The position numbers and the translations under genes are program-made. From NCBI GenBank assembly GCA_016784425.1, contig JADHUQ010000003.1, positions 1-37,372 of the forward strand: 37,372 nt of DNA, read 5' to 3'. Shown here piece by piece: positions 11,337-27,267 of the stretch (position 1 is the stretch's first letter; every line of letters begins with the position of its first letter). The stretch comes from Candidatus Delongbacteria bacterium (lineage in GTDB: Bacteria; CAIWAD01; BS150m-G50). Below the pieces are notes generated by a model. That model did no database searches. It saw only the letters and a program-made list of their open reading frames with translations, and was not told the origin of the DNA.

Positions 11337-12212
11337 CTACTCCAGATTCTGTACCTGCTCACGCAGGCATTCCAGTTCCTCTTTGATGCTGACCACCAGG
11401 TGTGAGATTTCAGCCGAAACGCTTTTGGAAGCGATGGTGTTTCCCTCGCGGTTCATCTCCTGCAGCAGGAAGTTGAGCTTCTTGCCGATCGGTTCCTGTT
11501 CCCGCAGTGTCCCCCTGAACAGCTTGATATGGCTGCGTAGACGAGTGATCTCCTCGTTGATGTCGAGTTTATCCGCCAGCATTGCGACCTCGAGATCAAG
11601 CCGTTCCGGCGTCATGTTCTGTCGCTCAGTCAATTTGGCAACGCGTTTCATGATTGTATCACGTACGGTGTCGCGGTTACGCCGGAAGGTAGTGTTGACC
11701 AATCCCAGCTGTTGTTCCATCGCCAGCAGGCGTTGACGGAAATCAACCAGCAATTCCCGCCCTTCGGCAGTGCGCATCTTCCGGAACTCCCGCAGGGCAT
11801 GTTGCAGTGCTGTCTGGGTCAGTGTCCACAGCTCCGGGTTCTCACGATTCTTGCGTGTTTCGCTGAGCAGGCTGCTGAAGGCGGGCAGATGGGAAAGACG
11901 CAGGTCGTTTTCCAGGCCATGACGTCGAGCCAGCTGGTCAGCCTCTTTGAGCAATCTCCCGATCATATCCGGCCGGAGGTTACCTAGACCCCCCTCCTCA
12001 ACTCGTGTCACCGCGATATAGAGATTCAGTTTACCCCGGGCGACCTGTGCCTTAACCAGATCACGCACCTCCTGCTGATAAAAATAGAGTTCTCGTGGCA
12101 GGTGAAGATTGAGATCGAGGAAACGGCTGTTGACGGCGGAAACCTCCGCGAACACCTCCCAGGTGGAACTGCTGCGGGAAGCGCGTCCAAATCCGGTCAT
12201 GCTTTTTACCAT
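11337..12212 (-). CDS. yicC: YicC/YloC family endoribonuclease
   Basis: SMTGFGR, VNSRFLD, DINEEITRLRSH, GKKLNFLLQEMNREGNTIASK, REQVQNLE. Confidence 0.95.
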   Translation of the reverse strand: MVKSMTGFGRASRSSSTWEVFAEVSAVNSRFLDLNLHLPRELYFYQQEVRDLVKAQVARGKLNLYIAVTRVEEGGLGNLRPDMIGRLLKEADQLARRHGLENDLRLSHLPAFSSLLSETRKNRENPELWTLTQTALQHALREFRKMRTAEGRELLVDFRQRLLAMEQQLGLVNTTFRRNRDTVRDTIMKRVAKLTERQNMTPERLDLEVAMLADKLDINEEITRLRSHIKLFRGTLREQEPIGKKLNFLLQEMNREGNTIASKSVSAEISHLVVSIKEELECLREQVQNLE

Positions 12213-12325
12213 ATCACCTCGTTAAGTCACAGTTGCAGGTGTGATGTTCTCTTTTCAGGGTATTACCATGATTATCCCGGAACAGTAACTCCGAGCCGCC
12301 TACATATCTGAAATTCAGAACCTAA

Positions 12326-12354
12326 ATTATACCTTTTCCTGTTGCGGATTTCAA
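12326..12354 (-). promoter_or_regulatory. sigma70-type promoter for the yicC-gmk-rpoZ-coaBC-udg-dnaB-rel operon
   Basis: Minus strand TTGAAA-17 nt-TATAAT, about 110 nt upstream of the yicC start. Confidence 0.75.
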
Positions 12355-12417
12355 CTGAAAAGGAGGGGATACTGTTTTAGCTGCCGGGACGGTTTGATTG
12401 GGAAAACCGACGGATCG

Positions 12418-12897
12418 CTAATCGGTGTCGGCTTCCTCATTGATTTCCGGTTGGATCCTGTTCACTTCGGCTTCGGTCAGCGGTAACCAGGTGATCGCCC
12501 CGGAGGGGCAGAACTTGACACACATGGGATCACCGTCGCAAAGATCGCACTTCACCGGGTAATCGGTAACCGGATCGAAATAGATATTCCCGAAAGGACA
12601 GGCGGCCACACAGAGATGACAACGAACACAGCGGAGATCGTGGTGCACCAGAGCACCGGTCTCCAGGTTCCACTGCAGTGCATTGGTGGGACAAATGGTG
12701 GCGCAGGCTGCCTCGTCACATTGCAGGCAGATAAGAGGCGTATTGATCAGTCGGGATTCATCCGCTTTGATGACCTTGATGTTGATGCGGGATTTTCCCG
12801 GTTGCCCCTGCAGACTGCTGTGGGTAAAGGCGCAGGCCAGTTCGCAGGACTTACAGGCGATACAGAGTTCCGGGCGGACATGAAATCGGTTTTCCAT
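12418..12897 (-). CDS. 4x[4Fe-4S] electron-transfer subunit (CooF/HydN/AOR small-subunit-like)
   Basis: Four Cys motifs: CIACKSCELAC, CLQC-x4-CATICP, CVRCHLCVAACPFG, KCDLC-x5-CVKFCP. TGATG coupling with the upstream gene. Confidence 0.88.
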   Translation of the reverse strand: MENRFHVRPELCIACKSCELACAFTHSSLQGQPGKSRINIKVIKADESRLINTPLICLQCDEAACATICPTNALQWNLETGALVHHDLRCVRCHLCVAACPFGNIYFDPVTDYPVKCDLCDGDPMCVKFCPSGAITWLPLTEAEVNRIQPEINEEADTD

Positions 12898-13673
12898 CAA
12901 ATCACCTCTTCCGATCTGTCAATGATCCTGTTGAACCTGTCGACGGTCTGTTTCTGCTTGCAGTCAGCGCACTGTTCCAGGTAGTCTTCCGGCAGCTGCT
13001 GCCGTTCGCTGAAGTACTGCTTCATCTCGGGTGTCAGCTTGAGGGAGCGCCCACATTCGCTGCAGGCGATCAGTTTGAACTCCTTATACCAGATCTTACG
13101 TTTTAATCCCCGCTCTTCGAACCTGATGTGACCGGTCGGGCAAACCTGGGCGCAGATAGTGCAACCGATACAACTGGCGGATGGTTCACTGAAAGGGGTA
13201 TCCACCTTTTTCAATCTGCCCCGTTCCACAGTGGCGATGGCGTTCATACCGAGCTCGCTGCAGACACGGGTACAGAGACCGCAGAGAATACAATCATCAC
13301 CTGCCGCATCCACTACGTAGCTGCTGGCCAGGATTCCATATTCAGACGCCAGATCCTGGATTACCCTGGAGTTGGGACTGGAAGCGAGCAGCAGATCGAG
13401 GATGGTGCAGCGGATCCGGGTAACTTCGCTGGAATGAGTCTGTACGATCAATCCCTCCTCTACCGGAAAGAGGCAGGAGGTGACATAATTCTTCCAGCCG
13501 TCCCAGCTCTGCCGGGTGATCTCCACTGTACAGAGACGACAGGCGCCAAAGGGCTCCACCGCTGCGTGATGACAGAGGGCGGGGATTTCGATATCCTGCC
13601 GGCGAATAGTCTCCAACAGCATTTCTCCCGCCGGTGCCTTTATCTGCTTTCCATTTATGGTCAATGTTACCAT
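12897..13673 (-). CDS. Short NuoG/HydA N-terminal-like Fe-S subunit without H-cluster or molybdopterin domain
   Basis: [2Fe-2S] ligands ALC...GACRLC...TSC; 2x[4Fe-4S] CILCGLCTRVC / CIGCTICAQVCP; C-terminal CSEC...CADC. Only 258 aa. Confidence 0.85.
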   Translation of the reverse strand: MVTLTINGKQIKAPAGEMLLETIRRQDIEIPALCHHAAVEPFGACRLCTVEITRQSWDGWKNYVTSCLFPVEEGLIVQTHSSEVTRIRCTILDLLLASSPNSRVIQDLASEYGILASSYVVDAAGDDCILCGLCTRVCSELGMNAIATVERGRLKKVDTPFSEPSASCIGCTICAQVCPTGHIRFEERGLKRKIWYKEFKLIACSECGRSLKLTPEMKQYFSERQQLPEDYLEQCADCKQKQTVDRFNRIIDRSEEVI

Positions 13674-13682
13674 GCAAGGCTC

Positions 13683-15536
13683 CTAGTGAACTTCTACAGC
13701 ATCAAAATTACACACCGCCATGCAGGCACCGCATTGTGTGCACTTGTCCTGATCGATGACATGCAATTTCTTCTTTTCCCCGGTGATGGCCACATCCGCG
13801 CAGGGCTTCACACAGGCTCCACACCCGGTACATTTTTCGTTGATCGTATAGATGATCAGATCCCGACAAACACCGGCCGGGCACCGTCTGTGCAGGATAT
13901 GCTCCAGGTACTCCTCCCTGAAGTACTTCAACGTTGAGAGCAACGGGTTGGGGCCGGATTGTCCGAGACCGCAGAGGGATCCGCGGACGATAACCTCCGA
14001 CAGCTGCTCCATCCTGTCGAGATCCTGCTCACTGCCCTGCCCCGCACAGACCTTCTGGACCAGGCCATGCAACTGGTAGAGCCCTTCACGACAGGGAACA
14101 CATTTGCCGCACGATTCCTTGACCAGAAACTCCAGGAAGTATCTGGCGACATCCACCATGCAGGTCAGGTCGTCCATGACTATCATACCACCGGAACCCA
14201 TCATGGAGCCGTTGGCGGTCAGGGTGTCAAAGTCAACCGGCAGGTCTAGCATTGAATCCGGCAGACAGCCACCTGAAGGTCCACCGGTCTGAACCGCCTT
14301 AAACGGCCGGTCGTCGATAATCCCGCCACCCACATCAAAGATAATCCGCCGCAGGGTGATCCCCATGGGGACTTCGATCAGGCCGGTGTTACGTACTTTG
14401 CCGACCAGTGAGAACACCTTGGTGCCGGCTGACTTGGGGGTGCCTATCTTGCAGTACCAGTTGGCTCCCTTATCAATTATGATCGGGACATTGGCATAGG
14501 TTTCGACATTGTTCAGTACGGTGGGTTGATCGTAGAGACCCTTCACAACTGAGCGGATGTATTTGGCGCGGGGTTCGCCCACTTCACCGGCGACAGATTT
14601 CATCAGGGCTGATGATTCCCCGCAGACAAAAGCACCAGCCCCACGGGCGATACGGATGTCAAAGGAGAATTCAGTGCCAAAGATGTTCTTCCCCAACAGA
14701 CCGATCTCGCGACAGTCTTCGATCGCTTTTTGAACATGTATAACAGCCAGCGGATATTCTTCGCGCACATAAATGTAGCCCTGGTTGGCACCGACCGCAT
14801 AGGCTGCGATGATCATACCCTCCAGCACTGCGTGAGGATCCCCTTCCATGATGCTGCGATCCATGAACGCGCCGGGGTCACCCTCGTCGCCATTGCAGAC
14901 GACATAGCGCATCTCGGACTCGACGTCGGCACAGGTCTGCCATTTGCGACCGGTTGAGAAACCGCCGCCGCCGCGACCACGCAGCCCCGAGCGTGAGATT
15001 TCGTCAATCACCTCCTGTGGTTGCATCCTGCGCAGAGCCTTGTCGAGTGCTGCATAACCGCCGTTGCCGATGTACTCCTTGATATCGTGTGGGGCAATCT
15101 TACCCAGATTCCGTAATACAATACGCTGCTGGTGCGTAAAAAAATCAACTTCCGGATAATGGGTTATTTTCTGTCCATCGACCGGGTTGGTGAAAAGCAA
15201 CCGCTCGATCACTACCCCCTTGCGGATAGTAGTATCGATGATGTCGGTTACCTGGCTGGTTTTGACCTTGGTATAGAAGATACCTTCCGGTTCAATAATC
15301 ACCAGAGGACCCTGCTCACAGAAACCGTGACACCCGGTAGACCGCACCGCTTCGAAGGAAAACCCGGTGATCCGCTTCTTCTTCATGACAATCCGGAATT
15401 CATCAACGATGGCCTGAGCACCGTTGGCAAGACAGCCGGTACCGCAGCAGATCAGTGCTTTCCTGGTGAACTGCTTGTCCCGGGTCAGGAAATCCCTTTG
15501 AACCTGCTTGAGTTGCCTGGAATTCTTAATACACAT
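13683..15536 (-). CDS. HydB/NuoF-like FMN/NADH subunit with electron-bifurcating (BfuB-type) architecture
   Basis: N-terminal thioredoxin-like 2Fe domain (CCGTGC...GCHGFC), SGLRGRGGGGF, NGDEGDPGAFMDR, GAGAFVCGE, GGPSGGC, SCGKCVPCREG, H-x5-CPAGVC, C-terminal 2x[4Fe-4S]. Confidence 0.92.
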   Translation of the reverse strand: MCIKNSRQLKQVQRDFLTRDKQFTRKALICCGTGCLANGAQAIVDEFRIVMKKKRITGFSFEAVRSTGCHGFCEQGPLVIIEPEGIFYTKVKTSQVTDIIDTTIRKGVVIERLLFTNPVDGQKITHYPEVDFFTHQQRIVLRNLGKIAPHDIKEYIGNGGYAALDKALRRMQPQEVIDEISRSGLRGRGGGGFSTGRKWQTCADVESEMRYVVCNGDEGDPGAFMDRSIMEGDPHAVLEGMIIAAYAVGANQGYIYVREEYPLAVIHVQKAIEDCREIGLLGKNIFGTEFSFDIRIARGAGAFVCGESSALMKSVAGEVGEPRAKYIRSVVKGLYDQPTVLNNVETYANVPIIIDKGANWYCKIGTPKSAGTKVFSLVGKVRNTGLIEVPMGITLRRIIFDVGGGIIDDRPFKAVQTGGPSGGCLPDSMLDLPVDFDTLTANGSMMGSGGMIVMDDLTCMVDVARYFLEFLVKESCGKCVPCREGLYQLHGLVQKVCAGQGSEQDLDRMEQLSEVIVRGSLCGLGQSGPNPLLSTLKYFREEYLEHILHRRCPAGVCRDLIIYTINEKCTGCGACVKPCADVAITGEKKKLHVIDQDKCTQCGACMAVCNFDAVEVH

Positions 15537-15537
15537 G

Positions 15538-15993
15538 CTACTTCCTCTTCAGCAGTTTCGCGGCCTTGTTGACGTTCAGAGAACCGTGGTACTTCTCATT
15601 GACGATCACCACCGGAGCCATCGCACAGGCGCCAACACAGGCAACCGCCTCAAGAGTATACTCACTGTCACTGGTAGTCTCCCCGGCTGAAATACCCAGT
15701 TTGTGCTCCAGTTGATCCTGGATCAACCTGGCGCCACGAATGTGGCAGGCGGTTCCCAGACAGACCTTCACGATATTTTTACCACGCGGTTTCAATGAGA
15801 AGGAGTTATAGAAGGTAGCTATGGATGCCACCTTGCTCAGCGGTACAGCGAGTGTCTCGGCGGTCAGGGTCAGAGCTTCCGGTGGAAGATAGTGGTACTC
15901 CTGCTGTATGTCCTGCAGTATCATGATGAGCGACTCCGAGCTTTGCCGGTGTCGGGCGATGATCTCGGGTAACCTGCTGAAGTCTTGACACAT
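15538..15993 (-). CDS. HydC/NuoE-like [2Fe-2S] subunit
   Basis: ILQDIQ..YHYLP, ATFYNSF, CLGTAC, CVGACAMAP. Confidence 0.92.
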   Translation of the reverse strand: MCQDFSRLPEIIARHRQSSESLIMILQDIQQEYHYLPPEALTLTAETLAVPLSKVASIATFYNSFSLKPRGKNIVKVCLGTACHIRGARLIQDQLEHKLGISAGETTSDSEYTLEAVACVGACAMAPVVIVNEKYHGSLNVNKAAKLLKRK

Positions 15994-16042
15994 AATCTTT
16001 CCTTATGCCTGCCGGGTGTCCCGGTCTGAATCAATACACTGG

Positions 16043-16594
16043 CTAAGCGTTAATCCCACTCTGTGAGATGGAGTTTTTACCGTGGCGAAAACAGGCGATA
16101 TTCAGCTCGATAAACTGCGGTTTGGCGGCAAAGCTCTGACGAATATGTTCTTCGACAGTCTCATCAGGAATGATCCCGGTGACAGCTTGAAATACACCCA
16201 GGATCACCATGTTGGCCGCCCGGGGATTGCCCAACTCCTGGGCAATGTCATTCGCCCTGATCTGGTACTGTATCAGATCATCCCGTTCACTGACGATGTC
16301 GATCAGGGAACTGTTGATAATCAGTTTGCCGCCGGTCTGCATCATCGGTGCAAATTTCTCCAGTGATGGCCGGTTCATGGCGATGACCACACTGGGTGTG
16401 GAAACGACCGGCGAGGCTACCGGTTCATCCGCCAGCACCACTGCGACATTGGCAGTCCCCCCCCGCATTTCAGGTCCGTAAGAGGGAAGCCAGCTGACAT
16501 ACAGGTTTCCCGCCATACCGGCATAAGCTATAATCTGTCCTGCCCGCAGGATGCCCTGTCCGCCAAAGCCGGCGAAGACTGACTGAATCAACAT
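16043..16594 (-). CDS. 2-oxoacid:ferredoxin oxidoreductase gamma subunit (VOR/KOR type)
   Basis: AGFGGQG, PSYGPEMRGGTA, ANMVILG. Confidence 0.93.
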   Translation of the reverse strand: MLIQSVFAGFGGQGILRAGQIIAYAGMAGNLYVSWLPSYGPEMRGGTANVAVVLADEPVASPVVSTPSVVIAMNRPSLEKFAPMMQTGGKLIINSSLIDIVSERDDLIQYQIRANDIAQELGNPRAANMVILGVFQAVTGIIPDETVEEHIRQSFAAKPQFIELNIACFRHGKNSISQSGINA

Positions 16595-16597
16595 CGG

Positions 16598-17341
16598 CTA
16601 AACCTCCTCCGGCGACTTCAGAATACCCAGCTTGTAGTGTTGCAGCGTATTGTCCCGAATATGCTCGAGAGACTGTTGTGGGGTCAACCCCCAGTTGGTC
16701 GGACAGGTTGAAAGAATCTCGACCAGCGAGAAACAACGGTTGTCTACCTGGTTCTGGAAAGCACGCCTGATCAGTTTTTTGGTCTGGATCTGGTGCAGCC
16801 CATCATGGACGGAACAACGTACGATGAAACCGGGGGTGGCCTGCGTAGCCAGTGCTTCCGATACGGCAACCGGGAAACCGGTCTGGCTGACATCGCGTCC
16901 GTCGGGTGAGGTGGTGGTGACCTGTTCCGGCAGGGTCGTTGGTGCCATCTGGCCACCAGTCATTCCATAAATACCGTTGTTTATAAAAATAACGGTTATC
17001 TTTTCGCCACGGTTGGCAGCATGAAATATCTCGTTGAAACCGATCGAGGCCAGATCGCCATCACCCTGGTAGGTATAGAGGATCAGATCGGGTCGGGCCC
17101 GTTTGGCTCCTGTTGCCAGGGCGGGTGCACGACCGTGTGGAGCTTCCATGAAATCGTTGTTGAGATAGTTGTAAATCAGCACGGCGCATCCCACCGGTGC
17201 GACACCGACAGTACGTTCCCTGATATTCAGTTCTTCAAGCACTTCCGCCACCATCCGGTGGACCACTCCATGGGTACAACCGGGACAATAGTGAGTCGGA
17301 ACATCCTTCATCGCCGTGGAGATCTTGAAAGCCAGCTCCAT
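16598..17341 (-). CDS. 2-oxoacid:ferredoxin oxidoreductase beta (TPP-binding) subunit
   Basis: HYCPGCTHG, PVGC, HGRA, TPP motif YQGDGD...INNGIYGMTGGQ, STCPTNWG. Start at MELAF after a GAGG SD (the ORF track extends to 17353). Confidence 0.93.
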   Translation of the reverse strand: MELAFKISTAMKDVPTHYCPGCTHGVVHRMVAEVLEELNIRERTVGVAPVGCAVLIYNYLNNDFMEAPHGRAPALATGAKRARPDLILYTYQGDGDLASIGFNEIFHAANRGEKITVIFINNGIYGMTGGQMAPTTLPEQVTTTSPDGRDVSQTGFPVAVSEALATQATPGFIVRCSVHDGLHQIQTKKLIRRAFQNQVDNRCFSLVEILSTCPTNWGLTPQQSLEHIRDNTLQHYKLGILKSPEEV

Positions 17342-17349
17342 GGGGGACC

Positions 17350-18402
17350 TCATTTGATAAGTTTCAACAACTGCTGCCTGATCTCGGCCGGGGTTGGAAC
17401 GATACCACCGGTGCGTCCGTAAAATTGCACCGCCCGTCGTCCTCTTACAGCCAGCCGGACATCTTCCACCATTTGCCCGGTGCTCATCTCGATTGCTATC
17501 ACTTTGCGTGCCCTGGCAGCAGCTTTGTAGATAGCAGAACTGGGGAAAGGAAAGAGGGTGATCGGTCTGACAATACCCACCCGGTGGCCTTCCTGGTTCA
17601 GTTCATCGATGGCAGTTTTACAGATACGGGCCATCATCCCATAGGAGACGACCAGGACATCCATCTTATCTGTGACGGCATATTCTTCAAAGCGGATTTC
17701 GTGCTGCTCCATCAACCGGTACTTGGCGAGCAGTTCCAGATTATTGTTTTCCAGCTGCTGCGGATCGAGAAAAAGCGATTTCACAATGGTGGGTGGGCGA
17801 TCTTTAGCGCCGGTGTTGGCGTAACTGCGATCGATACCTTCAGGCGTATTATACTCACGAAATTCTACCGGTTCCATCATCTGCCCTATCATTCCATCCC
17901 CGATAATCATCACCGGATTGCGATATTTATCAGCCAGATCGAAGGCATCCATTACCAGGTCGGCAGCTTCCTGTACACCGGCCGGGGCCAGTACCAGCAG
18001 ACGGAAATCTCCATGACCACCCGCCTTGGTCGCCATGAAATAATCTGACTGGGCTGGCAGGATGCCGCCCAGGCCCGGTCCCCCCCGCACAATGTTGATC
18101 AACACTGCAGGTAACTGGGAACCGGCGAGGTAGGAAATTGCCTCTGACATCAGTGCAACGCCGGGACTGGAGGAGGAGGTGAAAACCCGCTCACCCACCG
18201 CAGCGGCGCCGTAAACCATATTAACAGCACCCAATTCGCTCTCAGCCTGGACAAAATGGCCACCCACTTCCGGGAGTCTTCTCACCATATATTCTGCTAT
18301 TTCTGTTTGCGGGGTTATTGGATAAGCAAAATAATTACGACAATTTGCACGTATAGCAGCTTCTCCAAGTGCCTCATTTCCTTTCATCAGTACTTTTGTC
18401 AT
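17350..18402 (-). CDS. 2-oxoacid:ferredoxin oxidoreductase alpha subunit, VorB (2-ketoisovalerate)-like
   Basis: LMKGNEA, YPITPQTE, QAESE, TSSSSPG, RGGPGLG, EMSTGQM. Confidence 0.93.
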   Translation of the reverse strand: MTKVLMKGNEALGEAAIRANCRNYFAYPITPQTEIAEYMVRRLPEVGGHFVQAESELGAVNMVYGAAAVGERVFTSSSSPGVALMSEAISYLAGSQLPAVLINIVRGGPGLGGILPAQSDYFMATKAGGHGDFRLLVLAPAGVQEAADLVMDAFDLADKYRNPVMIIGDGMIGQMMEPVEFREYNTPEGIDRSYANTGAKDRPPTIVKSLFLDPQQLENNNLELLAKYRLMEQHEIRFEEYAVTDKMDVLVVSYGMMARICKTAIDELNQEGHRVGIVRPITLFPFPSSAIYKAAARARKVIAIEMSTGQMVEDVRLAVRGRRAVQFYGRTGGIVPTPAEIRQQLLKLIK

Positions 18403-18511
18403 ATTTTGTTCCTCAAAGGAGCTGTTGGCTTCCTGTCACCTGTATCAGAATAGGGAGCTGGCTCTTTCCAACCGGAAATCCTGTTTCCGGCGGGCAGCCG
18501 GGAAACTCGAA

Positions 18512-18745
18512 TCAGTAGTCGTAATAATGCACCATAACCCCGTTGAGCCCGATCTGAATCACCTGGTCCGGGCAGGTTACTGCACACAAACGGCAGCCGA
18601 TACACCGGGGTTGGTCTGCTACTTCAGCAAAGAAGTAACCCTTTTCATTTATGTTTTCAGAAATAGCGAGCACATGCTGGGGACAGGCGTAGATACAAAG
18701 CTCACAACCTTTGCATCGTTCCTGCCTGATCAGAACTCTGGGCAT
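18512..18745 (-). CDS. 2x[4Fe-4S] ferredoxin, delta subunit of the oxidoreductase
   Basis: CKGCELCIYACP, INEKGY, CIGCRLCAVTCPD. Confidence 0.92.
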   Translation of the reverse strand: MPRVLIRQERCKGCELCIYACPQHVLAISENINEKGYFFAEVADQPRCIGCRLCAVTCPDQVIQIGLNGVMVHYYDY

Positions 18746-18794
18746 AAGGACCTCTTCTTAAACAGAGCACCCTCCTGCAACCACAGGTGGGCAA

Positions 18795-19547
18795 TCAGAT
18801 CTGGATACGACCCCGCGCTTTACCATACTGTACATTTGGCTCCTGCCAGGGGGGACGCATAAGACGATGGATTTGCAGCAGTGGCACGTCGTAGTCGGTT
18901 GGGGAGATCTCGGCGGCAACCTGCCGCTCGACAGTCATAAATAGAAAGGGAAGTCCTGACTTTGCAGCCAGTTGACTGGTAATCTCGTACCCCCCGGCGA
19001 GCACTGAAGCATCGGTTTCATCCATCAGATGTGCGTTTGCCGCCAGGGCTGTTATCCTCATCCCGGCAGCCTGCTCGATTTCTTTCATAACGCGTGACGC
19101 ACCCTGCACTGTGCTGGTAAAGGGGCGGAGAACATTGAGAATAAAGATGAACTCCGTCTCCTCCGTATTGATGGCACCCTGCAGGGAACGTAATACACGT
19201 GCACCGACATCGTCACCCCCGACATCTACCACCACATGACGCTGGGGATCACTGAGATGACCGCGCACTTCCGGCAGGATAATCGGCAGTTCCGCAAAAA
19301 ACTGCTCACCACGGGGAACGACCACTTCCACGCCGGCCGCTTCCAGAAATTCGACAGCTTCCCGGGAGCGAAAATAGGGATTGACGATATCCAGATCAAT
19401 TATTGATTGGGATTCGTGGAACTGTTTGAGGTAAACAGCAAGATTAACAGCAACTTCGGTTTTACCACTGCCATAGGCGCCGGTGATAATCAGCGCTCGT
19501 CTGGATAGATTTTTGATGATCGCATCATCAGGCATGTAACGGTCCAT
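18795..19547 (-). CDS. Uncharacterised P-loop NTPase (MinD/SIMIBI-like), first gene of the oxidoreductase operon
   Basis: Walker A GAYGSGKT, DLDIVNPYFRSRE, DVGGD. Confidence 0.8.
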   Translation of the reverse strand: MDRYMPDDAIIKNLSRRALIITGAYGSGKTEVAVNLAVYLKQFHESQSIIDLDIVNPYFRSREAVEFLEAAGVEVVVPRGEQFFAELPIILPEVRGHLSDPQRHVVVDVGGDDVGARVLRSLQGAINTEETEFIFILNVLRPFTSTVQGASRVMKEIEQAAGMRITALAANAHLMDETDASVLAGGYEITSQLAAKSGLPFLFMTVERQVAAEISPTDYDVPLLQIHRLMRPPWQEPNVQYGKARGRIQI

Positions 19548-19580
19548 CTCTGTAATTGTGCGGCTTTGATTACTACTTTT

Positions 19581-19623
19581 AAGCTAAGATTCAGCGCAAG
19601 CTAAGATTCAGCGTAAGCTAAGA
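19581..19623. repeat. Tandem repeat, 17-bp unit AAGCTAAGATTCAGCGY x about 2.5
   Basis: Units at 19581-19597 and 19598-19614, partial unit at 19615-19623. Confidence 0.9.
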
Positions 19624-20015
19624 GCAGTGATGCTTATACTTGTGCATTACAACAGGTCAGTCATGATGTCTGCCGGTTCCAGGGTAATAACATCGAGGTC
19701 GACAGCCCGGATTACAATCAGCTCATGGAACACCTGCCAGCCGGGGTAAAGGATCATTTTAGTAAACTGACGCACCGGGCTAAGCTGGCGGATGCGTTGC
19801 TATTACTGATGTAACTGAGTAGTAAATGTAGATTTAAGGAGGAAATACTCCAAGGAAAAAGTACTTTCTCCCCCTGTCTCCCCCCCGCAAAGAGGGTTTT
19901 TCGACCAACGGTTTGTGGTTTACAGGAGCTGAAAGTTTCAACAGTCCGCATGGACAGCTGGGGAAGAGGAAGTAATACTCTTCACAACTCAACACTCTAC
20001 CGCTTTTACACCTGA

Positions 20016-20876
20016 CTAATCCTCAATGACCCGTCCGTATCTGACTGCCAGCCACTCACCTTCCCTGTTGGAAGCCGTTTCACGGAGTGGAAACCGGGCG
20101 GCGAGTTGCTGCAACTGGAGACGGTCTGAAACGAGGGGACCACTGATCAGAAGTTCTCCACCAGGTTCAGTCAACCGGACCAGTTCGCTGAAGAGCTGCT
20201 CGATCAGGGGGAACAGCATGTTTGACAATACCATCTGAAAACGATAGTGCTGTTCAAGCTGGCCTGGTTGAAGGAGCCGGAAAAAGGTTTCATGAGCAAC
20301 CTGGTTGAGGAGGGCGTTCTCGCGGGCGTTGTCGATGGCAACTTCGTCAATGTCAATACCGAGGGCAAAGGGAGCGCCCCGTTTGATAGCCGCCAGCGAA
20401 AGGATGCCACTCCCGCAACCGACATCAAGCACATTGAGTCCGGTCAGATCGGCGGTATCCAGCCAGGATAACAGCAGACGGGTGGTCGGATGGGTTCCGG
20501 TACCAAAAGCCATACGGGGATGGATCGTCAGCGGTGTCACACCCGGCTGTGGTTCCGGTTTATTCCAGGGGGGATGAACAATGAAATTGCCGACGCGGGT
20601 AGGTTGCCAGCTTTCCTGCCAGCTGGTGTTCCAGTTGACTTCCGGAAGTCCCTCCCTGTGCAGTGAATAGTCAGTCCTGGTATTGTTGAGTCTGTCATAT
20701 TCTGCGTTATAGTTTGTTAGTATCTTTTCGTAAAGACTGCATTCCATCTCTGATTTAAAATATACCTTAAGTCCTCCGATAGTTTCTTCGATTCCCGTTG
20801 CCCCGTTTTCGAAAGCGAGGTTGGCGATATTGTCACGGGTGTCCTCACCTGTTTCTATGCTGAGGCAGAAGTACAT
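20016..20876 (-). CDS. prmA: Ribosomal protein L11 methyltransferase
   Basis: NWNTSW, HPPW, MAFGTGTHPTT, LDVGCGSGILS, DIDEVA. Start set at MYFCL after a GGAG SD. Confidence 0.93.
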   Translation of the reverse strand: MYFCLSIETGEDTRDNIANLAFENGATGIEETIGGLKVYFKSEMECSLYEKILTNYNAEYDRLNNTRTDYSLHREGLPEVNWNTSWQESWQPTRVGNFIVHPPWNKPEPQPGVTPLTIHPRMAFGTGTHPTTRLLLSWLDTADLTGLNVLDVGCGSGILSLAAIKRGAPFALGIDIDEVAIDNARENALLNQVAHETFFRLLQPGQLEQHYRFQMVLSNMLFPLIEQLFSELVRLTEPGGELLISGPLVSDRLQLQQLAARFPLRETASNREGEWLAVRYGRVIED

Positions 20877-20968: not shown

Positions 20969-23900
20969 TTACCGGCCAACAATGTTGGTGTTGACATTCA
21001 GACGCAGCTCCTGAAAACTGACTCTTCCGGATGGATCGCGGTTATCAAGACGCTGCCCGAACTCATACTGGATACCACCGGTAACATTGGGGGTGAAACT
21101 GTAGCGCGTTTCCAGTCTGACCGTCCAGTTTCGATTGAAATTCTCACTCGACCATTCATCCACGCCGTTGAAGGAGCTGCGGTTTGAAGTATTGGAGCGG
21201 GTGTAGGTCATCGTGAAATTGACATCATTGCGCAGTGAACCTGTTTTCATAAACCAGAGTTTGAATGGCAGTTTTGTCCCTCTACCGAGTCGGTAGGTGG
21301 TCGCGATGCTCAGATCTCTCGTATTGCTGTACTCGGCATCACGCATTTCACCAGGTTCTGAGATACCGAATGACATACGCTGATTGTAGGAGGCAGTTGT
21401 CGAGAAGCGACCGATCCAGGTGATGTTGAGTCCAACCAGGGGATTGAAGTTACGTTCGTATTCGAGTCGATTCAGACCAAGATAATCACCGAAGTCCCGG
21501 AAGGTTCTCCGGACCATGCCGGAGTAGTGATGCGACAGGTTGATCGACTGGCAGATATTCGAAACCCAGGGAAGGGATTCGAGATGGTTCCAGCGCAGTT
21601 GATAATCAGGGATTCTCACCAGTGGAATCTCATTATCAGTACCGACATTTTCTTTTAACAAATATAGCGGCAAACCGGTCCAGCTCTCCTGTCGGCTCTC
21701 GGTTTCTCCCCAACCACGCTGGATATCGATGTCGTATTGAAAATCGAGGTCGATATCACGAGTCACTTTCATCTGGGTGGTGACTCCGTAACCGCGGGTG
21801 ATGGAGGAGGTAGGATTAAAAATATACCCAGACTCAGAATTGAGCTGTTCTCTACCGGAGCCTGGATTTGATTCCAGTCCTAATTGATACGCCAGAGAAG
21901 CGTGTCGGCTGCCTGATCCGATCCCTTTGTCGTAGATGTCGTAACCGGGATCAGATTGGGTTCTGGTCAAGGTGGAGGTCAACCGGATATCCCCCAGTTT
22001 GCTGAGTACTGAATAGGTGCCCTGACGCGCGCTCCGGAAAGCACTGTCCAGTCGTTCACCCAGCGGGACCCCGGGTGTTTCAATCACCTCGGCCACAGAG
22101 GCTGAATCTGCTGCCTCCCCTTCACTACCCCTTGAACCACCACCCGCCTGGGAGCGCTCGTCCTGCGCCGGTGGCCGATTGTTGCGTCGGCTGCTGCCGG
22201 AACGGCCAGCTTTCGGCACCTGCAGCAACCAGGCGAAGATATCCTGTGGCTTCAGGGTACCATTGCCGGTAAGTGTGTTCTGGCTTCCCAGATCAACACC
22301 TTTTCGTGGATCGGCCAGGGTGCGATTCCAGGAATACTGCGTACTGTAATTGAAATCGGGGCGCAACCAGTTCAGGAACGAGGGTTGAAACTTCAGATTG
22401 GCGCTCTGCTGAATACTGCGGTCCTGAGCGAAGAGGTCGGTGGCTGCATCCTCATAGTGGTAGGTGGTGCTGTCCGTTGTATCGTACAGGTCACGCAGCC
22501 TGAAATAGAGATCGGACTGATAAGAACGATTGTAGGATAATGAGAATGACCGGAATGGTGACAGGGAATATTCAAAACGCCTGGACATGGTATAGGTGTG
22601 GTTTTCACTGGTGGTATTGTTGCGGTTATATCTCATATTCTCCGTCCAGGAGGTACTGGCACTGACACCTAGACGGGTCGGGAAATAACGGAAATTGATG
22701 TTCCGTAAACCACCCAGTAGCGGCATGCCCTCCGTCCAATTGAAAAGCGGCAACTCGTGCCTCCAGTTCGGTGAATTGCTGTAGGAGGTGCTGATCTGCT
22801 CACTGCGGGTGGTATCGGCGGCAATCTGATCGTTGCTGACATAGGTCTGTGAGACATCATATGATACAGACAGCTTATCGAGAGTATGGCTCAGCCAGGG
22901 ATTCTCCGATCCGGTCTTGCTGAAACTGATACTGCCATTGAGGGTGTGACGCCGATTGAGTATCTCTTCAGGTGGGTTATCCGGAACCAGCCGATCATCA
23001 CCGGGGAAGTACTTGGGGGAAGAAACCGATCTGTTACTGCTGAGGGACAGCGGGATGTTGGTACGCCAGGGTCGGGGCAGGAATTTATCAAGGTGGATCG
23101 TGCTGTTGGCCACCTCTGAGGTAGTGTTGTCGCCGGTTCCCATCCTCTGTTCGATAGTATGGAACTCAGAGTCCCGTTTTTCCAGCCGCCCGTAAAGGGT
23201 CATGAAATCGGATAGCCGCAGATTAACCGCCACCCGCTGGGCCTGTCCCACTTCCCGCTTTACATCGGATACCCGCAACTCATTGAAATAGACTGCTTCA
23301 CTGTTAGCCACAGCGTCATGGTTGGTTACACCGAGATAGAGAAAACTGACATCATTCAGTGATGGATTGCCCTTCACCAGCACATAACCGCCATCCGATA
23401 TCTGCTTCGGTTTTTCCGGATCCGGTTGATCCTTGGAGGAGCGACTGAACTCCTCCAGATCGGTAATCTCCTCGAAGATAATGTCCATGTTGTTCAGCTG
23501 CCAGCCGGCAGTCAGATAGCGGTGATATTCGTAGTAATCCTGTTCGGTGGATGCGAGCCGCAAACGGATCTCCAGGACGGAATCAGGGAAAACCTGCTCC
23601 CGTAATTCACTGCCCCCCCGGATAAACATTTTCAAACGGTTGTAATCGGTCAGCCGGACCCGATCATTGAGAATCTTGTAGATCCAGAAAGTGGAGTCGG
23701 CAGGCAGTTCATCCAATTGCATAACCAGTGACTGCTCCTTCTGGTAAGCACCGGTGATGGCGTCCCGGTGGCCCTGAACACCCGCTGGCGGCTCATAGTC
23801 GCTGTTTTCATGCGTATTGATGACAGCGACATTACCGTAGGCCAGGGTATCACCACTGGCTGTAACCGGGTAGATTTCACGCCATTCATTTCCGACCAGC

Positions 23901-26900
23901 ATAAAACTGGCCAGCTGCAGAGAGGTGGACTGATGGAATCCCTCAAACCAGATGCGAACCCCGCGAATGTTCTGAAACGTGGGATTGTTCCAGGCGATTT
24001 CGTACTCCTTCAACGGGATGCGATACAGGGTCCAGCCATAGGAATTCTGTGAGACCTGGTAACGTGACCAGGGGGAAGCGGGATCGGTGGAAAGGGTGTA
24101 GCTGTAATAGTTTTCGATTGTGTCCAGAACACCGTTGTTGTTACGATCTTCGGTGTCGGGCAGGTAGGTTGCAGCATCGGCACCGTTGTTCTCCAGCCCT
24201 TTGAACCACTGTCCGTTACTCTCATCGCGGTACTGCCAGTCATCACGCGACCACGGCTCCAACGCTTCCTTGCGGTTATTGCCATTGATGTCCCAGAAGT
24301 CATAAAAGGAACCAAACTCCGCCACCATGGCGGTTGAATCACCCGACCAATGGGCCATGGCGGCGGTACCGGGCCAGGGGGGATCCTCACCCGCGCGACC
24401 ATCGATACCGATATCCTCCCCCTCATCCAGCAGACCGTTGCCGACATTTACCAGCGCCGGCTCAATCCGATCCTCGGTATCCAGCTGGCCGTTGGGGATG
24501 ACATCCTCAGAGATCTCACCCAGCTCGATGTGGATCAGTCCACTGCGATCACCTGAAGATCGAACCATCAACTCAATATACTTGGTGTTGCTCTGGTCAG
24601 GATTTGCACCGCGGAAATCATGATAGAAACCGCCCCAGCTACCCCCTTCCGGGATTTCCTGTCCCTGCTCACCGGTTTCATAGAGGAGAGGATAAAAGTC
24701 CATCTGCAATATCTGCAGGTCATCGTTCTGCAGATTTCCGGAATCATACTCCTCCCAGATCTCCTGCTTGGGAACCCGTTGCCGGGGGCTGTAAGCGGTC
24801 GCAATCCCGCGATCTCCGGTCAGAGTGTGGGCGGGGCTGGAAGAGATGAACCAGGCGCCGGATCGCATACCGAGATCCTGTTCCCGCTTTATCGACTCGA
24901 AGTCGTCAAGATAGGCGACGCCGTTGTTGTCACCCGTTGCTGGATTGTTGAGGGGGTTGGGGTTGGGAATAACCCGGGCGATCTCCCCTTCAATACTGAT
25001 CTCAGATTCCTGCTCCGCCTCTACCAGCGGTATGGAATCGATCATCCGGGTGAGAAAGCGGGGATGAAACTCCAGTGCACCGTTGAGGTCCAGCACCAGG
25101 TTGCGCATCGGTTCGTTCCCGATTCTGACCTTGTCCTCCTGGATCTGCTGATTGAGATACAGGACAGTCGCCCCCAGGTAGGATGCCTCATCAAAGTTGT
25201 ACTGCCCGCGGACACCCATGATGGTCTTCTTTTCGATGGAGATCATTTCATGATTCTGGTAGGTGATCTCCAGGCTGGCGCCGGGATTATCAGCTTCACT
25301 GGTCAGGATGGTGACGATACCGGCCACGTAGTCGATCGTATAGTCTTTGTCCCGCTGCAGTTTCTGACCGTTGAGTTTAACCGTCTCAGATCCCTCGATA
25401 ACATTCCAGCCCAGGTCGTATACCTTACTCAGTGTCAGGACGCTGGTCTCCATGTAGAAACGCTGGCTCAGGCGCTGGAAGTCGTTGTGGGTGGTTGGGA
25501 TGTTGTAGATCGTCTCCAGCGTATCAGCCTCGTTAAAATTGGTCTGCAGAGTGCTGTCCGCCACGATGACATAGGCGTCCTGCTGGCCAAACGGTTCCAG
25601 TGAGGGAAAGGAGATTATCCCCGTGTTGGTATCAATCCAGCGAGAATCGATTTTGTTGTCCGGTGACTGCTGACCGGAGGTGTTTTCATTATCGAGATGC
25701 AGAATTTCGATATAGGGAACACCACCCTGGTGATCTGGATCGGAACTGCCGGTAGTGTATCTGCGAATGGCAAAATTCAGGTCGTCGATACTCTTGCCAG
25801 CGGTGGCCACCTGATACTTGTTACGCAGCATCAGATCCCAGTGAGGCGTGGCGGGATCCTGGTGTGAGTCGCGGAGAATATAGACTGCATTATCCCCGTA
25901 GAGAGCAGGTGAGGGGAATTCCACACCCAGTTTGTTCTTGAAGGAAACTGCCAGGATATCGTTGGGTCGGAGATAACTGTTGATGAGGATATACCCGAGA
26001 TCATCATTGCGCTGGTATTCGCTGTCACTCAGGCGGCGCATCGGCTGATTGGTATAGATCGGTGTGTCCTCACCCTCTTCATAGATATCCAGGTTCTCAT
26101 CACCGCTGGCTGAAGAGATGTACATTTCGACAAAGTCAACCCTACTGTTTGCATTCACCAGGTGTTCCCAGCGATCAGTGTAGACAGGATAGGCAATGCG
26201 ATAGGAATGGCTGAGAAAGAAGTAACGATCGGAGATGAACTGCGTGGGGAAAATCTGCGACTTCTGTTCCGATTGTCCACCGGTGAATGTCTGCGACTGG
26301 TTTTCTCCATGCTCGACACTCATGATGGCGGTCATATTGAGTGGACCGAATTGCATGACGGTTTTCAATCCGAACAGCCCGGAATTACGACCGGAGAAGG
26401 TGACAAAATCGGCACCCGGGAGTGAGAGGCTGACATTACCGGCGGAGATCGATTTGATAATCTCATCTTCGGTTCCGGTATAGGTCAAACGCAGTGAGTT
26501 TTGCCAATCGAAAGTATTATCGGTGTCCTGATCAATGTTGATATCAACTTTCTGGCCAATTTTCCCGACAATGGTGAACCGCTGCTGCATGTCCATATTG
26601 AAATTAGTGTTGTTCGCCTGGTTGGTATAGGAATCCTGTCGCTCCCGTTTTTCCTTACGAAAGCCACCGTTGATATTGATATTCCCGGTTGCATCCAGAC
26701 CGATGCGACCGTCCCCGAAAAACTTGCGGAAGGTCTTGTTACGGACTTTAAAGGGGATGTCGATCTTCAGGGCGCCACCGGCACGTTGCTGGACCTGGTT
26801 CTTGGTACGCAGCATCTCATGACGCAACTGCTGAACCGCATGATGCAGCAGCATCCGTTCATAGTAAGCTTCAGTAGTGAGAAAAATGACATACTGGAAG

Positions 26901-27220
26901 GTGCTGTCCTTATCGAGATACTCCAACCGGACCAGGGTATCACTCATGACAGTTCGAATAATCAACTGGACCGGCTCTGTAGCAGTCAGACGGGGTTGAA
27001 AACCGGCGCTTTGCCAGCTGGCAGCCAGAAAAGGGGTTTCCGCGGAGGGATAGGTAGCGTCATGGTAGATATATTCTTTTGCTTTAACTGCAAGACTCAG
27101 CGATGACAAAAACAGTCCCGGGAGCAGGAGAAGCCAGAGCAATAAAGGATGACGACGAAGGCACTTCCGGAAGTGTCGCCTGCAGACAGGTTCTGGTATT
27201 GGTAATTGTGTTGCTCGCAT
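20969..27220 (-). CDS. sprA: SprA/Sov-family large outer-membrane translocon (type IX secretion)
   Basis: About 2080 aa with signal peptide. NFNMDMQQ..IVGKIGQKV, LTYTGTEDEIIKSISAGNVSLSLP, LFGLKT, EGSETVKLNG, DYTIDY, YLDDFE, TEDRNNNG, YFNELR and a beta-strand-rich C-terminus are typical of SprA. Start uncertain (ORF track 27295 overlaps rnz). Confidence 0.88.
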   Translation of the reverse strand: MRATQLPIPEPVCRRHFRKCLRRHPLLLWLLLLPGLFLSSLSLAVKAKEYIYHDATYPSAETPFLAASWQSAGFQPRLTATEPVQLIIRTVMSDTLVRLEYLDKDSTFQYVIFLTTEAYYERMLLHHAVQQLRHEMLRTKNQVQQRAGGALKIDIPFKVRNKTFRKFFGDGRIGLDATGNININGGFRKEKRERQDSYTNQANNTNFNMDMQQRFTIVGKIGQKVDINIDQDTDNTFDWQNSLRLTYTGTEDEIIKSISAGNVSLSLPGADFVTFSGRNSGLFGLKTVMQFGPLNMTAIMSVEHGENQSQTFTGGQSEQKSQIFPTQFISDRYFFLSHSYRIAYPVYTDRWEHLVNANSRVDFVEMYISSASGDENLDIYEEGEDTPIYTNQPMRRLSDSEYQRNDDLGYILINSYLRPNDILAVSFKNKLGVEFPSPALYGDNAVYILRDSHQDPATPHWDLMLRNKYQVATAGKSIDDLNFAIRRYTTGSSDPDHQGGVPYIEILHLDNENTSGQQSPDNKIDSRWIDTNTGIISFPSLEPFGQQDAYVIVADSTLQTNFNEADTLETIYNIPTTHNDFQRLSQRFYMETSVLTLSKVYDLGWNVIEGSETVKLNGQKLQRDKDYTIDYVAGIVTILTSEADNPGASLEITYQNHEMISIEKKTIMGVRGQYNFDEASYLGATVLYLNQQIQEDKVRIGNEPMRNLVLDLNGALEFHPRFLTRMIDSIPLVEAEQESEISIEGEIARVIPNPNPLNNPATGDNNGVAYLDDFESIKREQDLGMRSGAWFISSSPAHTLTGDRGIATAYSPRQRVPKQEIWEEYDSGNLQNDDLQILQMDFYPLLYETGEQGQEIPEGGSWGGFYHDFRGANPDQSNTKYIELMVRSSGDRSGLIHIELGEISEDVIPNGQLDTEDRIEPALVNVGNGLLDEGEDIGIDGRAGEDPPWPGTAAMAHWSGDSTAMVAEFGSFYDFWDINGNNRKEALEPWSRDDWQYRDESNGQWFKGLENNGADAATYLPDTEDRNNNGVLDTIENYYSYTLSTDPASPWSRYQVSQNSYGWTLYRIPLKEYEIAWNNPTFQNIRGVRIWFEGFHQSTSLQLASFMLVGNEWREIYPVTASGDTLAYGNVAVINTHENSDYEPPAGVQGHRDAITGAYQKEQSLVMQLDELPADSTFWIYKILNDRVRLTDYNRLKMFIRGGSELREQVFPDSVLEIRLRLASTEQDYYEYHRYLTAGWQLNNMDIIFEEITDLEEFSRSSKDQPDPEKPKQISDGGYVLVKGNPSLNDVSFLYLGVTNHDAVANSEAVYFNELRVSDVKREVGQAQRVAVNLRLSDFMTLYGRLEKRDSEFHTIEQRMGTGDNTTSEVANSTIHLDKFLPRPWRTNIPLSLSSNRSVSSPKYFPGDDRLVPDNPPEEILNRRHTLNGSISFSKTGSENPWLSHTLDKLSVSYDVSQTYVSNDQIAADTTRSEQISTSYSNSPNWRHELPLFNWTEGMPLLGGLRNINFRYFPTRLGVSASTSWTENMRYNRNNTTSENHTYTMSRRFEYSLSPFRSFSLSYNRSYQSDLYFRLRDLYDTTDSTTYHYEDAATDLFAQDRSIQQSANLKFQPSFLNWLRPDFNYSTQYSWNRTLADPRKGVDLGSQNTLTGNGTLKPQDIFAWLLQVPKAGRSGSSRRNNRPPAQDERSQAGGGSRGSEGEAADSASVAEVIETPGVPLGERLDSAFRSARQGTYSVLSKLGDIRLTSTLTRTQSDPGYDIYDKGIGSGSRHASLAYQLGLESNPGSGREQLNSESGYIFNPTSSITRGYGVTTQMKVTRDIDLDFQYDIDIQRGWGETESRQESWTGLPLYLLKENVGTDNEIPLVRIPDYQLRWNHLESLPWVSNICQSINLSHHYSGMVRRTFRDFGDYLGLNRLEYERNFNPLVGLNITWIGRFSTTASYNQRMSFGISEPGEMRDAEYSNTRDLSIATTYRLGRGTKLPFKLWFMKTGSLRNDVNFTMTYTRSNTSNRSSFNGVDEWSSENFNRNWTVRLETRYSFTPNVTGGIQYEFGQRLDNRDPSGRVSFQELRLNVNTNIVGR

Positions 27221-27267
27221 ATGAACTAGAGCTGTGCAGCGGAAGTCGGCGATACCTGCTCTGGTAT

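Follow-up and report, generated by a model that had tools for sequence, protein, structure and literature searches.

A nine-gene block of Candidatus Delongbacteria in which a VorB-type 2-oxoacid:ferredoxin oxidoreductase may serve as the substrate module of a Bfu-type bifurcating core

Which catalyst serves a bifurcating module whose gene block encodes neither a hydrogenase nor a molybdenum or tungsten enzyme? This question is raised by a stretch of 37,372 nucleotides (nt) from Candidatus Delongbacteria (contig JADHUQ010000003.1 of assembly GCA_016784425.1; hereafter the window), in which nine closely spaced open reading frames (ORFs) lie on the minus strand at 12418-19547, with short spacers or 4-nt overlaps between them. 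They encode an NTPase, the delta, alpha, beta and gamma subunits of a 2-oxoacid:ferredoxin oxidoreductase (OFOR), the three Bfu subunits BfuC, BfuB and BfuA, and a polyferredoxin. The initial annotation had named nine same-strand genes here; all are present, and their identities could be assigned by Pfam and NCBIfam. It had also stated that no H-cluster, NiFe, molybdenum/tungsten-pterin or second flavin domain is encoded, and none was found in the nine proteins by Pfam and NCBIfam scans. The sole catalyst of the block is the OFOR. The conclusion drawn at that time, that the module has no catalytic third-substrate subunit, overstated the oddity, since an OFOR as the third module was proposed in 2022 for the Por-Bfu enzymes in the main text of PMC9304861. 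From the evidence described below, we consider it probable that the nine genes are one operon for one Bfu-type complex, which would couple 2-oxoacid oxidation to reducing NAD+ and ferredoxin at the same time.

The nine genes and their cofactor sites

The features of the block, in the order of transcription, with the evidence for each in brackets, are as follows.

18795..19547, minus strand: MinD/ParA/CbiA-like P-loop NTPase, 250 amino acids (aa), first gene of the block (weak ParA/Mrp P-loop matches)
18512..18745, minus strand: OFOR delta, 77 aa, 8 Cys, two [4Fe-4S] motifs (translation, orthologue alignment)
17350..18402, minus strand: OFOR alpha, VorB subfamily, 350 aa (POR_N and PFOR_II; NF005507)
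16598..17353, minus strand: OFOR beta, 251 aa, thiamine pyrophosphate (TPP) site and one [4Fe-4S] (TPP_enzyme_C)
16043..16594, minus strand: OFOR gamma, 183 aa (Pfam POR, 140 bits)
15994..16042, minus strand: gamma-BfuC spacer, 49 nt, with AAGGAAAG ahead of the BfuC ATG (sequence)
15538..15993, minus strand: BfuC, HydC/NuoE-like, 151 aa, one [2Fe-2S] (2Fe-2S_thioredx, PF01257, 165 bits)
13683..15536, minus strand: BfuB, HydB/NuoF-like, 617 aa (Pfam domains, ligand conservation, PDB matches)
12897..13673, minus strand: short BfuA, 258 aa (Fer2_4 and two 4Fe-4S; WorA match)
12418..12900, minus strand: WorS/AorA/HycB-like polyferredoxin, 160 aa, 16 Cys, four [4Fe-4S] (Fer4 families, PDB matches)

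The NTPase and delta genes are 49 nt apart and delta and alpha 109 nt; alpha and beta overlap by 4 nt, gaps of 3, 1 and 9 nt separate beta from gamma, BfuC from BfuB and BfuB from BfuA, and the BfuA and polyferredoxin genes again overlap by 4 nt. The 49-nt gap between gamma and BfuC is the one given in the initial annotation. A 68-aa ORF at 18399-18605 was considered as the delta gene and rejected as spurious, because it has no Cys and overlaps the real delta. An Rfam scan of 11800-20300 gave no match.

The OFOR half is of the four-subunit type, with POR_N in alpha, a TPP site and four Cys in beta, the POR domain in gamma and two [4Fe-4S] motifs in delta. The alpha subunit matches the NCBIfam model VorB (NF005507) with 523 bits against a cut-off of 399 and PorA_Arch with only 114 bits, and its closest solved chains are the KOR/OGOR-type alphas 1yd7, 8ys5 and 6n2n. 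Across 17 orthologues the eight Cys of delta are invariant, as are the GDGD...NN motif of beta and its C23, C26, C56 and C217. Alpha, beta and gamma fall far below the NCBIfam cut-offs for the Pad family. The substrate would be a branched-chain or other 2-oxoacid; the names VorB and 2-oxoisovalerate are NCBIfam and JGI labels rather than substrate evidence.

In the other half, BfuB carries an N-terminal 2Fe-2S domain, Complex1_51K (flavin mononucleotide [FMN]/NAD), SLBB, NADH_4Fe-4S and two C-terminal Fer4 domains, and all of its ligand Cys and His are present, being kept in 68 to 77 of 77 relatives. The motifs GAFMDR, GGPSGGC, TCMV and H-x5-CPAGVC, which the initial annotation had linked to bifurcating enzymes, are all there, and the Cys/His set is kept in 75 to 77 of the 77 aligned relatives. 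According to the main text of PMC9304861, the extra clusters of BfuB (an N-terminal [2Fe-2S], two C-terminal [4Fe-4S] and the Cys/His set) are absent from non-bifurcating homologues. The best solved match is WorB (9mqx_B, 755 bits), followed by the B subunits of bifurcating hydrogenases, and the closest solved relatives are all bifurcating enzymes. BfuB with these extra clusters, adjoined by a BfuC with a thioredoxin-like [2Fe-2S], places the pair in the Bfu family, and by analogy it would reduce NAD+ and ferredoxin together, with electrons from a third substrate.

BfuA holds one [2Fe-2S], two [4Fe-4S] and a Zn-finger-like motif (CxxC...CxxC), and carries a tail of 21 residues at its C-terminus. 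Its cluster residues C34/45/48/67, C128/131/134/138 and C168/171/174/178 are invariant, and no further cluster motif is found, which agrees with the Type 2 Bfu enzymes as described in the main text of PMC9304861, where extra subunits feed BfuA and BfuA is without clusters A3 and A5. WorA (9mqx_A) matches the whole protein (E 2.7e-48), with BfuA residues 3-248 facing residues 6-243 of the 247 in WorA. The window's BfuA retains its four Zn-finger Cys (residues 204-237), as do the orthologues of Acidobacteriota, Myxococcota and Planctomycetota; in three Zixibacteria/Ignavibacteria orthologues they are replaced, with the tail still there.

The polyferredoxin has 16 Cys in four cluster motifs, all invariant in 17 orthologues, and with four [4Fe-4S] motifs in a protein of the 150-190-aa range it belongs to the WorS/AorA/HycB type. 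Its best solved chains are AorA (8c0z_C, E 1.2e-30) and WorS (9mqx_E, E 1.1e-26), and among NCBIfam models PadI matches it best, through the N-terminal part of the model (97 bits). By these likenesses, it would pair a catalytic subunit with an electron-output module. In its orthologues the C-terminus varies and is often missing, so nothing here implies a nanowire of the WorS kind. BfuA-polyferredoxin and BfuB-BfuA fusions that seemed to occur in two loci (L024 and L021) were rejected, being produced by long ORFs in the wrong frame of DNA rich in G+C.

The tail of BfuA connects this protein with a known attachment mode. In the 2025 structure of WorABCSL, determined by cryo-electron microscopy (cryo-EM; PDB 9MQX), the published account in PMC12318220 describes how the C-terminal Zn finger and helix of WorA recruit the 4x[4Fe-4S] subunit WorS. 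In an alignment of 22 BfuAs, a tail of 15 to 25 residues after the second CxxC is present in 16/16 polyferredoxin-linked proteins (eight class A including the window, five Wor, and one each with FeFe hydrogenase, a xanthine dehydrogenase [XDH]-like enzyme and carbon monoxide dehydrogenase [CODH]) and absent in 6/6 class B proteins; the classes are defined below. This co-occurrence follows the printed WorA/WorS logic.

The matches of the NTPase are weak and confined to the Walker A region (ParA 19 bits, MrpORP 21.5 bits), a profile search against the PDB returned only MinD/FleN/Mrp N-termini (E>=0.0015), and its Atlas neighbours are CbiA/ParA-like clusters. Its Walker A GSGK(T/S)E and DVGGD motifs are invariant in 17 orthologues. 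As a guess, it may be an assembly or maturation factor.

Conservation of the block and its relation to known Bfu enzymes

In order to place the block, one genome per species was scanned, where relatives of BfuB numbered at least 598. Of these the 80 best loci were examined, a sample that is thereby biased towards the window's own kind, and were sorted by tblastn with the nine window proteins, a check for N-runs and Pfam scans of the neighbours; several of the 80 could not be assigned to any class. The synteny survey proposed in the initial annotation found the nine genes in identical order (class A) in 19 of the 80 loci, with 8 further loci partial, an arrangement far beyond chance. Seven of the partial loci are cut by a contig end or N gap, and one (L015) is truly without the NTPase and polyferredoxin genes. 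L001 is cut inside BfuA and L052 in alpha, a contig end truncates each of L004, L014, L025 and L048, and the absence of genes upstream of gamma in L003 was rejected as a true loss because it is an assembly N-run. The NTPase gene is found in the 19 full class A loci and in L001. Class A occurs in Zixibacteria, Calditrichota, Ignavibacteriota, Acidobacteriota (Thermoanaerobaculia), Myxococcota and Planctomycetota. Its flanks differ between phyla (rubrerythrin, an anti-sigma partner-switching set, methyltransferases), and no other redox catalyst is conserved in them.

Other loci couple the Bfu genes to different catalysts. In 13 loci (class B; Smithella, Syntrophus, Desulfo- lineages and others) the order is gamma-alpha-beta followed by BfuCBA, the OFOR scores as PorA (500 bits) and PorB (421 bits) and is 23-30% identical to the window's, and BfuA is a 237-aa protein without the tail; there is no polyferredoxin and no NTPase gene. 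In 12 loci (class C) a WorS-like polyferredoxin and an aldehyde:ferredoxin oxidoreductase (AOR) of about 600 aa lie beside BfuCBA, the AOR being confirmed by Pfam in 5/12 and judged by gene size and order in the rest. The remaining types include Bfu with [FeFe] hydrogenase, CODH, an XDH-like molybdoenzyme, a heterodisulfide reductase (Hdr)/FlpD-like protein, and fused BfuA-AOR, BfuA-GltD and BfuA-Fdh. In every other polyferredoxin-bearing Bfu locus examined, the catalytic gene (AOR, FeFe hydrogenase, CODH or XDH-like) adjoins.

A maximum-likelihood tree of BfuB (77 rows after three with <80% coverage were dropped; LG+G4; Shimodaira-Hasegawa-like approximate likelihood ratio test [SH-aLRT] only; midpoint root) places the window's BfuB in a 27-row clade with support 97, made up of the window, 20 of the 21 class A loci, four partial class A loci, L017 and L022; none of the 13 class B rows is inside, and the class A locus L039 lies outside on an unresolved fork. 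The deeper relations are weakly supported, so recruitment of an OFOR independently of Por-Bfu is suggested rather than proven.

Some loci are worth describing in their own right. L017 (3430-9748) and L022 (9848-13732), inside the class A clade, have a BfuB of about 800 aa, a BfuA of about 1300 aa with FlpD and Pyr_redox_2, and no OFOR. L043 (1913-10549, Anaerovorax odorimutans) and L059 (1778-10549, a Firmicutes metagenome-assembled genome [MAG]) share one order of polyferredoxin, 905-aa XDH-like molybdoenzyme, 763-773-aa GltD/Hdr-CCG-like protein and BfuCBA; such an XDH-like partner is not among the Bfu partners named in the main text of PMC9304861. BfuA is fused to the C-domain of aldehyde:ferredoxin oxidoreductase in L045 (9869-11854, 661 aa) and in L047 (7533-11333), where the 1266-aa frame may merge BfuB too. 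In the blocks of Thermoanaerobaculia and Myxococcota, the next gene after that of the polyferredoxin encodes rubrerythrin (L021:11129-11641, L024:11241-11753, L042:11339-11842, L048:3764-4276).

Within the phylum, which has 12 species genomes, the block is patchy. The source MAG (1.94 Mb) is 67% complete; in two same-genus genomes the block is present in full and, as in the window, lies between prmA and yicC. In the sister family, 8/9 genomes have a VorB-type alpha, 48-51% identical to the window's, and in all eight there is no BfuB-like match within 30 kb or on the same contig; the one such locus inspected (L094) is a bare delta-alpha-beta-gamma set without NTPase, Bfu or polyferredoxin genes. 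The nearest BfuB relatives (about 70%) belong to other phyla, and together with the patchy occurrence this suggests that the block was acquired by transfer as a cassette. Around the block, a 2108-aa ORF with a SprA_N domain (type IX secretion/gliding) lies upstream of prmA (window 20969-27295, minus strand), and shortly upstream of where the NTPase gene starts there is a 17-nt direct repeat in about 2.5 copies (19575-19625, minus strand), which is not conserved in the two same-genus genomes.

Among known systems, the nearest in outline is Por-Bfu. Schut et al. (2022, PMC9304861) defined the Bfu family and listed the uncharacterised Por-Bfu as Type 2; in the main text it has seven subunits, BfuABC and four POR, occurs in Chloroflexi and syntrophic Proteobacteria and is suggested to link pyruvate/acetyl-CoA with NAD(H) and ferredoxin, on the strength of co-expression in Dehalococcoides. 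Like Por-Bfu, the window has OFOR genes directly upstream of BfuC-BfuB-short BfuA as the proposed third-substrate module, and its BfuA has only [2Fe-2S], two [4Fe-4S] and the Zn-finger motif. It differs in its VorB-type OFOR (the alpha is not of the PorABCD type), the gene order delta-alpha-beta-gamma, the WorS-like polyferredoxin, the BfuA tail and the NTPase gene. Our comparison rests on the main text of PMC9304861, and some of the 12 'Por' sequences counted there, in BfuB clades 35, 44 and 45, may be of the window's type; class B, judged from its sequences, fits the published Por-Bfu. In the published text of PMC12318220, Por-Bfu is said to have no WorS homologue and to keep the BfuA Zn finger without the C-terminal helix. 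The window and its orthologues contradict the view in print that a WorS homologue is missing from oxoacid-linked Bfu enzymes, at any rate where the VorB-type variant is concerned. The genome papers on Melioribacter and Caldithrix, in the portions available, do not mention the cluster.

The second relative is WorABCSL, the bifurcating tungsten aldehyde oxidoreductase of Acetomicrobium mobile (9MQX). BfuB, BfuA and the polyferredoxin find their best or second-best solved matches in its chains B, A and E, and BfuA shares the Zn finger and C-terminal tail, which in WorA dock WorS. Unlike in WorABCSL, there is no WorL (AOR) gene in the block or in own-genus genomes, and the OFOR stands in its place. 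The OFOR genes themselves are like those of stand-alone VorB-type OFORs (NF005507), with the same four subunits in the same order (a sister-family alpha scores 546 bits), but in the window the NTPase, Bfu and polyferredoxin genes lie alongside.

One coupled complex or separate partners

The two halves meet at the gamma-BfuC junction. Of 24 class A loci, 13 show an overlap of 1-8 nt between the two genes, and 7 more a distance of <=30 nt (counts that use heuristic start picks); the overlaps argue for one transcript. In the 49-nt spacer of the window a consensus scan found no promoter-like or terminator-like site, with region-wide counts at shuffle level. Two sequencing runs match the operon in scattered pieces of 151-483 nt at 99-100% identity, one bridging BfuC/BfuB (15163-15645) and two the NTPase-delta spacer (18731-18891, 18657-18824); none of the pieces listed covers the gamma-BfuC spacer, and they are silent on co-transcription there. 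The study's three runs are labelled metatranscriptomic but flagged as probably DNA. For each of the eight other proteins the pairwise distances are correlated with those for BfuB (r 0.64-0.87; 0/2000 permutations as high), which is weak evidence, since a shared species history would give the same correlation. At the far end, between the polyferredoxin stop and yicC, a promoter-like site with 11/12 consensus matches (window 12326-12354, minus strand) fits an end of the operon at 12418.

Several points weigh against a single coupled complex. The OFOR has its own two-cluster delta and could reduce free ferredoxin like the stand-alone enzyme of L094, and the gamma-BfuC spacers of the own genus are 49, 89 and 348 nt, which leaves room for an internal promoter. 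The Planctomycetota locus L015 (4782-11318) keeps the VorB-type delta-alpha-beta-gamma-BfuCBA order and the BfuA tail, with no NTPase upstream and no polyferredoxin downstream although DNA is present on both sides, so that the wire is not always encoded within the block. No polyferredoxin or Bfu fusion is found among the 120 longer beta relatives listed, all of which are beta-gamma or alpha-beta fusions, and the six longer polyferredoxin relatives have Fer4-type domains only, one also with Pyr_redox_2, and no beta or BfuA fusion. Oxoacid oxidation lies at about -500 mV (Table 1 of PMC9304861) and could reduce NAD+ and ferredoxin without bifurcation, so its benefit is arguable. Finally, literature text searches turned up no biochemical or structural work on a Por/Vor-Bfu; the only papers found were PMC9304861 and PMC12318220. 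The separate delta, the own-genus spacers and L015 would suit two separate enzymes in one operon, a ferredoxin-reducing VorB-type OFOR and a free-standing BfuABC-polyferredoxin acting on soluble pools, for example to pass part of the ferredoxin electrons to NAD+, with the coupling metabolic via ferredoxin and not physical. We regard this as unlikely, though it is the most serious of the alternatives, because the Bfu core needs a third redox partner and no other is found in or near the conserved block, gamma and BfuC so often overlap, and the polyferredoxin and BfuA tail are the apparatus that attaches the catalytic module in WorABCSL. A complex prediction of alpha, beta and delta with the polyferredoxin as partner gave a median of 0.37, partner-swapped controls of 0.00 and 0.00 and an alpha-swapped control of 0.38; it gives no answer on binding.

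It is also conceivable that a single complex works without bifurcation, as an NAD+-dependent 2-oxoacid dehydrogenase in which BfuBC is the NADH module only, as in phenylglyoxylate:NAD+ oxidoreductase (PadEFGHI, NCBIfam NF0457xx). We take the Pad enzyme to be an NADH-dependent phenylglyoxylate dehydrogenase, an OFOR delivering electrons to NAD through a module that is not BfuBC. PadI begins with a polyferredoxin-like domain, the part that the window's polyferredoxin matches best, and this fusion, which counts in favor of the coupled complex too, sets a precedent for joining an OFOR to the reduction of NAD by way of a domain of that kind; in Pad the domain is fused to beta, whereas the window's polyferredoxin is a separate protein. 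Oxoacid potentials are also low enough for direct NAD+ reduction. The well-kept extra clusters and Cys/His set of BfuB, and its nearest solved relatives, uniformly bifurcating, speak against an NADH module only and make this reading quite improbable.

The least probable reading, which we hold to be very doubtful, is that the Bfu-polyferredoxin part docks a partner encoded elsewhere (AOR/WorL, formate dehydrogenase or hydrogenase) with the OFOR a mere neighbour. The closest likeness of this part, which is to WorABC-WorS, would favor it, as would an [FeFe] hydrogenase gene on contig C111 (G000:C111:36784-39625), the only one found in the genome. That hydrogenase has its own NuoF-like neighbour (419-aa frame), a search for Molybdopterin in the genome gave a single weak match (28 bits), and AFOR_C was not found in the own MAG at its 67% completeness, in 2/2 same-genus genomes (97% and 94% complete) or in 4/5 other class A genomes, the fifth having one weak match of 64.6 bits. 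In the 12 WorS-AOR loci and in the FeFe, CODH and XDH-like loci, moreover, the partner is always adjacent. The C111 NuoF-like protein matches BfuB residues 166-544 only and seems to be without the extra bifurcating cluster domains. The initial annotation had offered this docking and, as its first alternative, a VOR-type enzyme that is itself the third-substrate module. The docking is thus disfavored; the first alternative, which with Por-Bfu in print since 2022 is a published hypothesis, is favored by the comparative evidence, and this bears on physical coupling and bifurcation by inference only.

Proposed reaction and biological meaning

The genes, their cofactor motifs, the conserved synteny and the homology of the Bfu and polyferredoxin proteins to WorABC-WorS are observed directly; from them we infer complex formation, the electron path, bifurcation and its direction. 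In the coupled complex that we prefer, the VorB-type OFOR (alpha, beta, gamma, delta) would decarboxylate the 2-oxoacid on TPP, and the electrons would pass from the [4Fe-4S] of beta to the two clusters of delta and on to the four clusters of the polyferredoxin. The latter would be held on BfuA by the C-terminal Zn finger and tail, as WorS is on WorA. The electrons may then travel through the [4Fe-4S] and [2Fe-2S] clusters of BfuA into the BfuBC core, which would split them at once between NAD+ at the FMN site and ferredoxin at the C-terminal clusters of BfuB. By analogy with WorABCSL, the overall reaction would be 2 oxoacid + 2 CoA + NAD+ + 2 Fdox -> 2 acyl-CoA + 2 CO2 + NADH + 2 Fdred, and it may run in reverse.

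The outline of this scheme is a published prediction; new are the VorB-type OFOR, the WorS-like wire, the BfuA tail, the dedicated NTPase and the wide phyletic spread. Tentatively, and with somewhat less confidence than in the coupled complex itself, we suggest that the block represents a separate bifurcating class, 'Vor-Bfu', independent of Por-Bfu, in which a VorB-type OFOR is plugged into a Wor-Bfu-like core via a WorS-type wire. Its nine genes, among them one for a dedicated assembly ATPase of the MinD/ParA-like kind, would have spread together as a cassette over at least seven phyla. To fermenters the enzyme would supply NADH and reduced ferredoxin, at a fixed ratio of 1:2, from oxoacids derived from amino acids; run backwards, it would form oxoacids from acyl-CoA, NADH supplying half of the electrons.

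In anaerobic fermentation, reduced ferredoxin comes chiefly from oxoacid oxidoreductases. Were some of these enzymes fixed to a bifurcating NADH/ferredoxin core, peptide fermenters would have to balance their redox accounts differently, in groups that include Zixibacteria, Ignavibacteria, Calditrichota and Thermoanaerobaculia. With its eight redox subunits, the block is also a compact target for expression and cryo-EM. Moreover, after WorABCSL it is the second natural case on which the 'plug and wire' principle can be tested, one in which the same tail and polyferredoxin would serve a TPP enzyme and not a tungsten enzyme.

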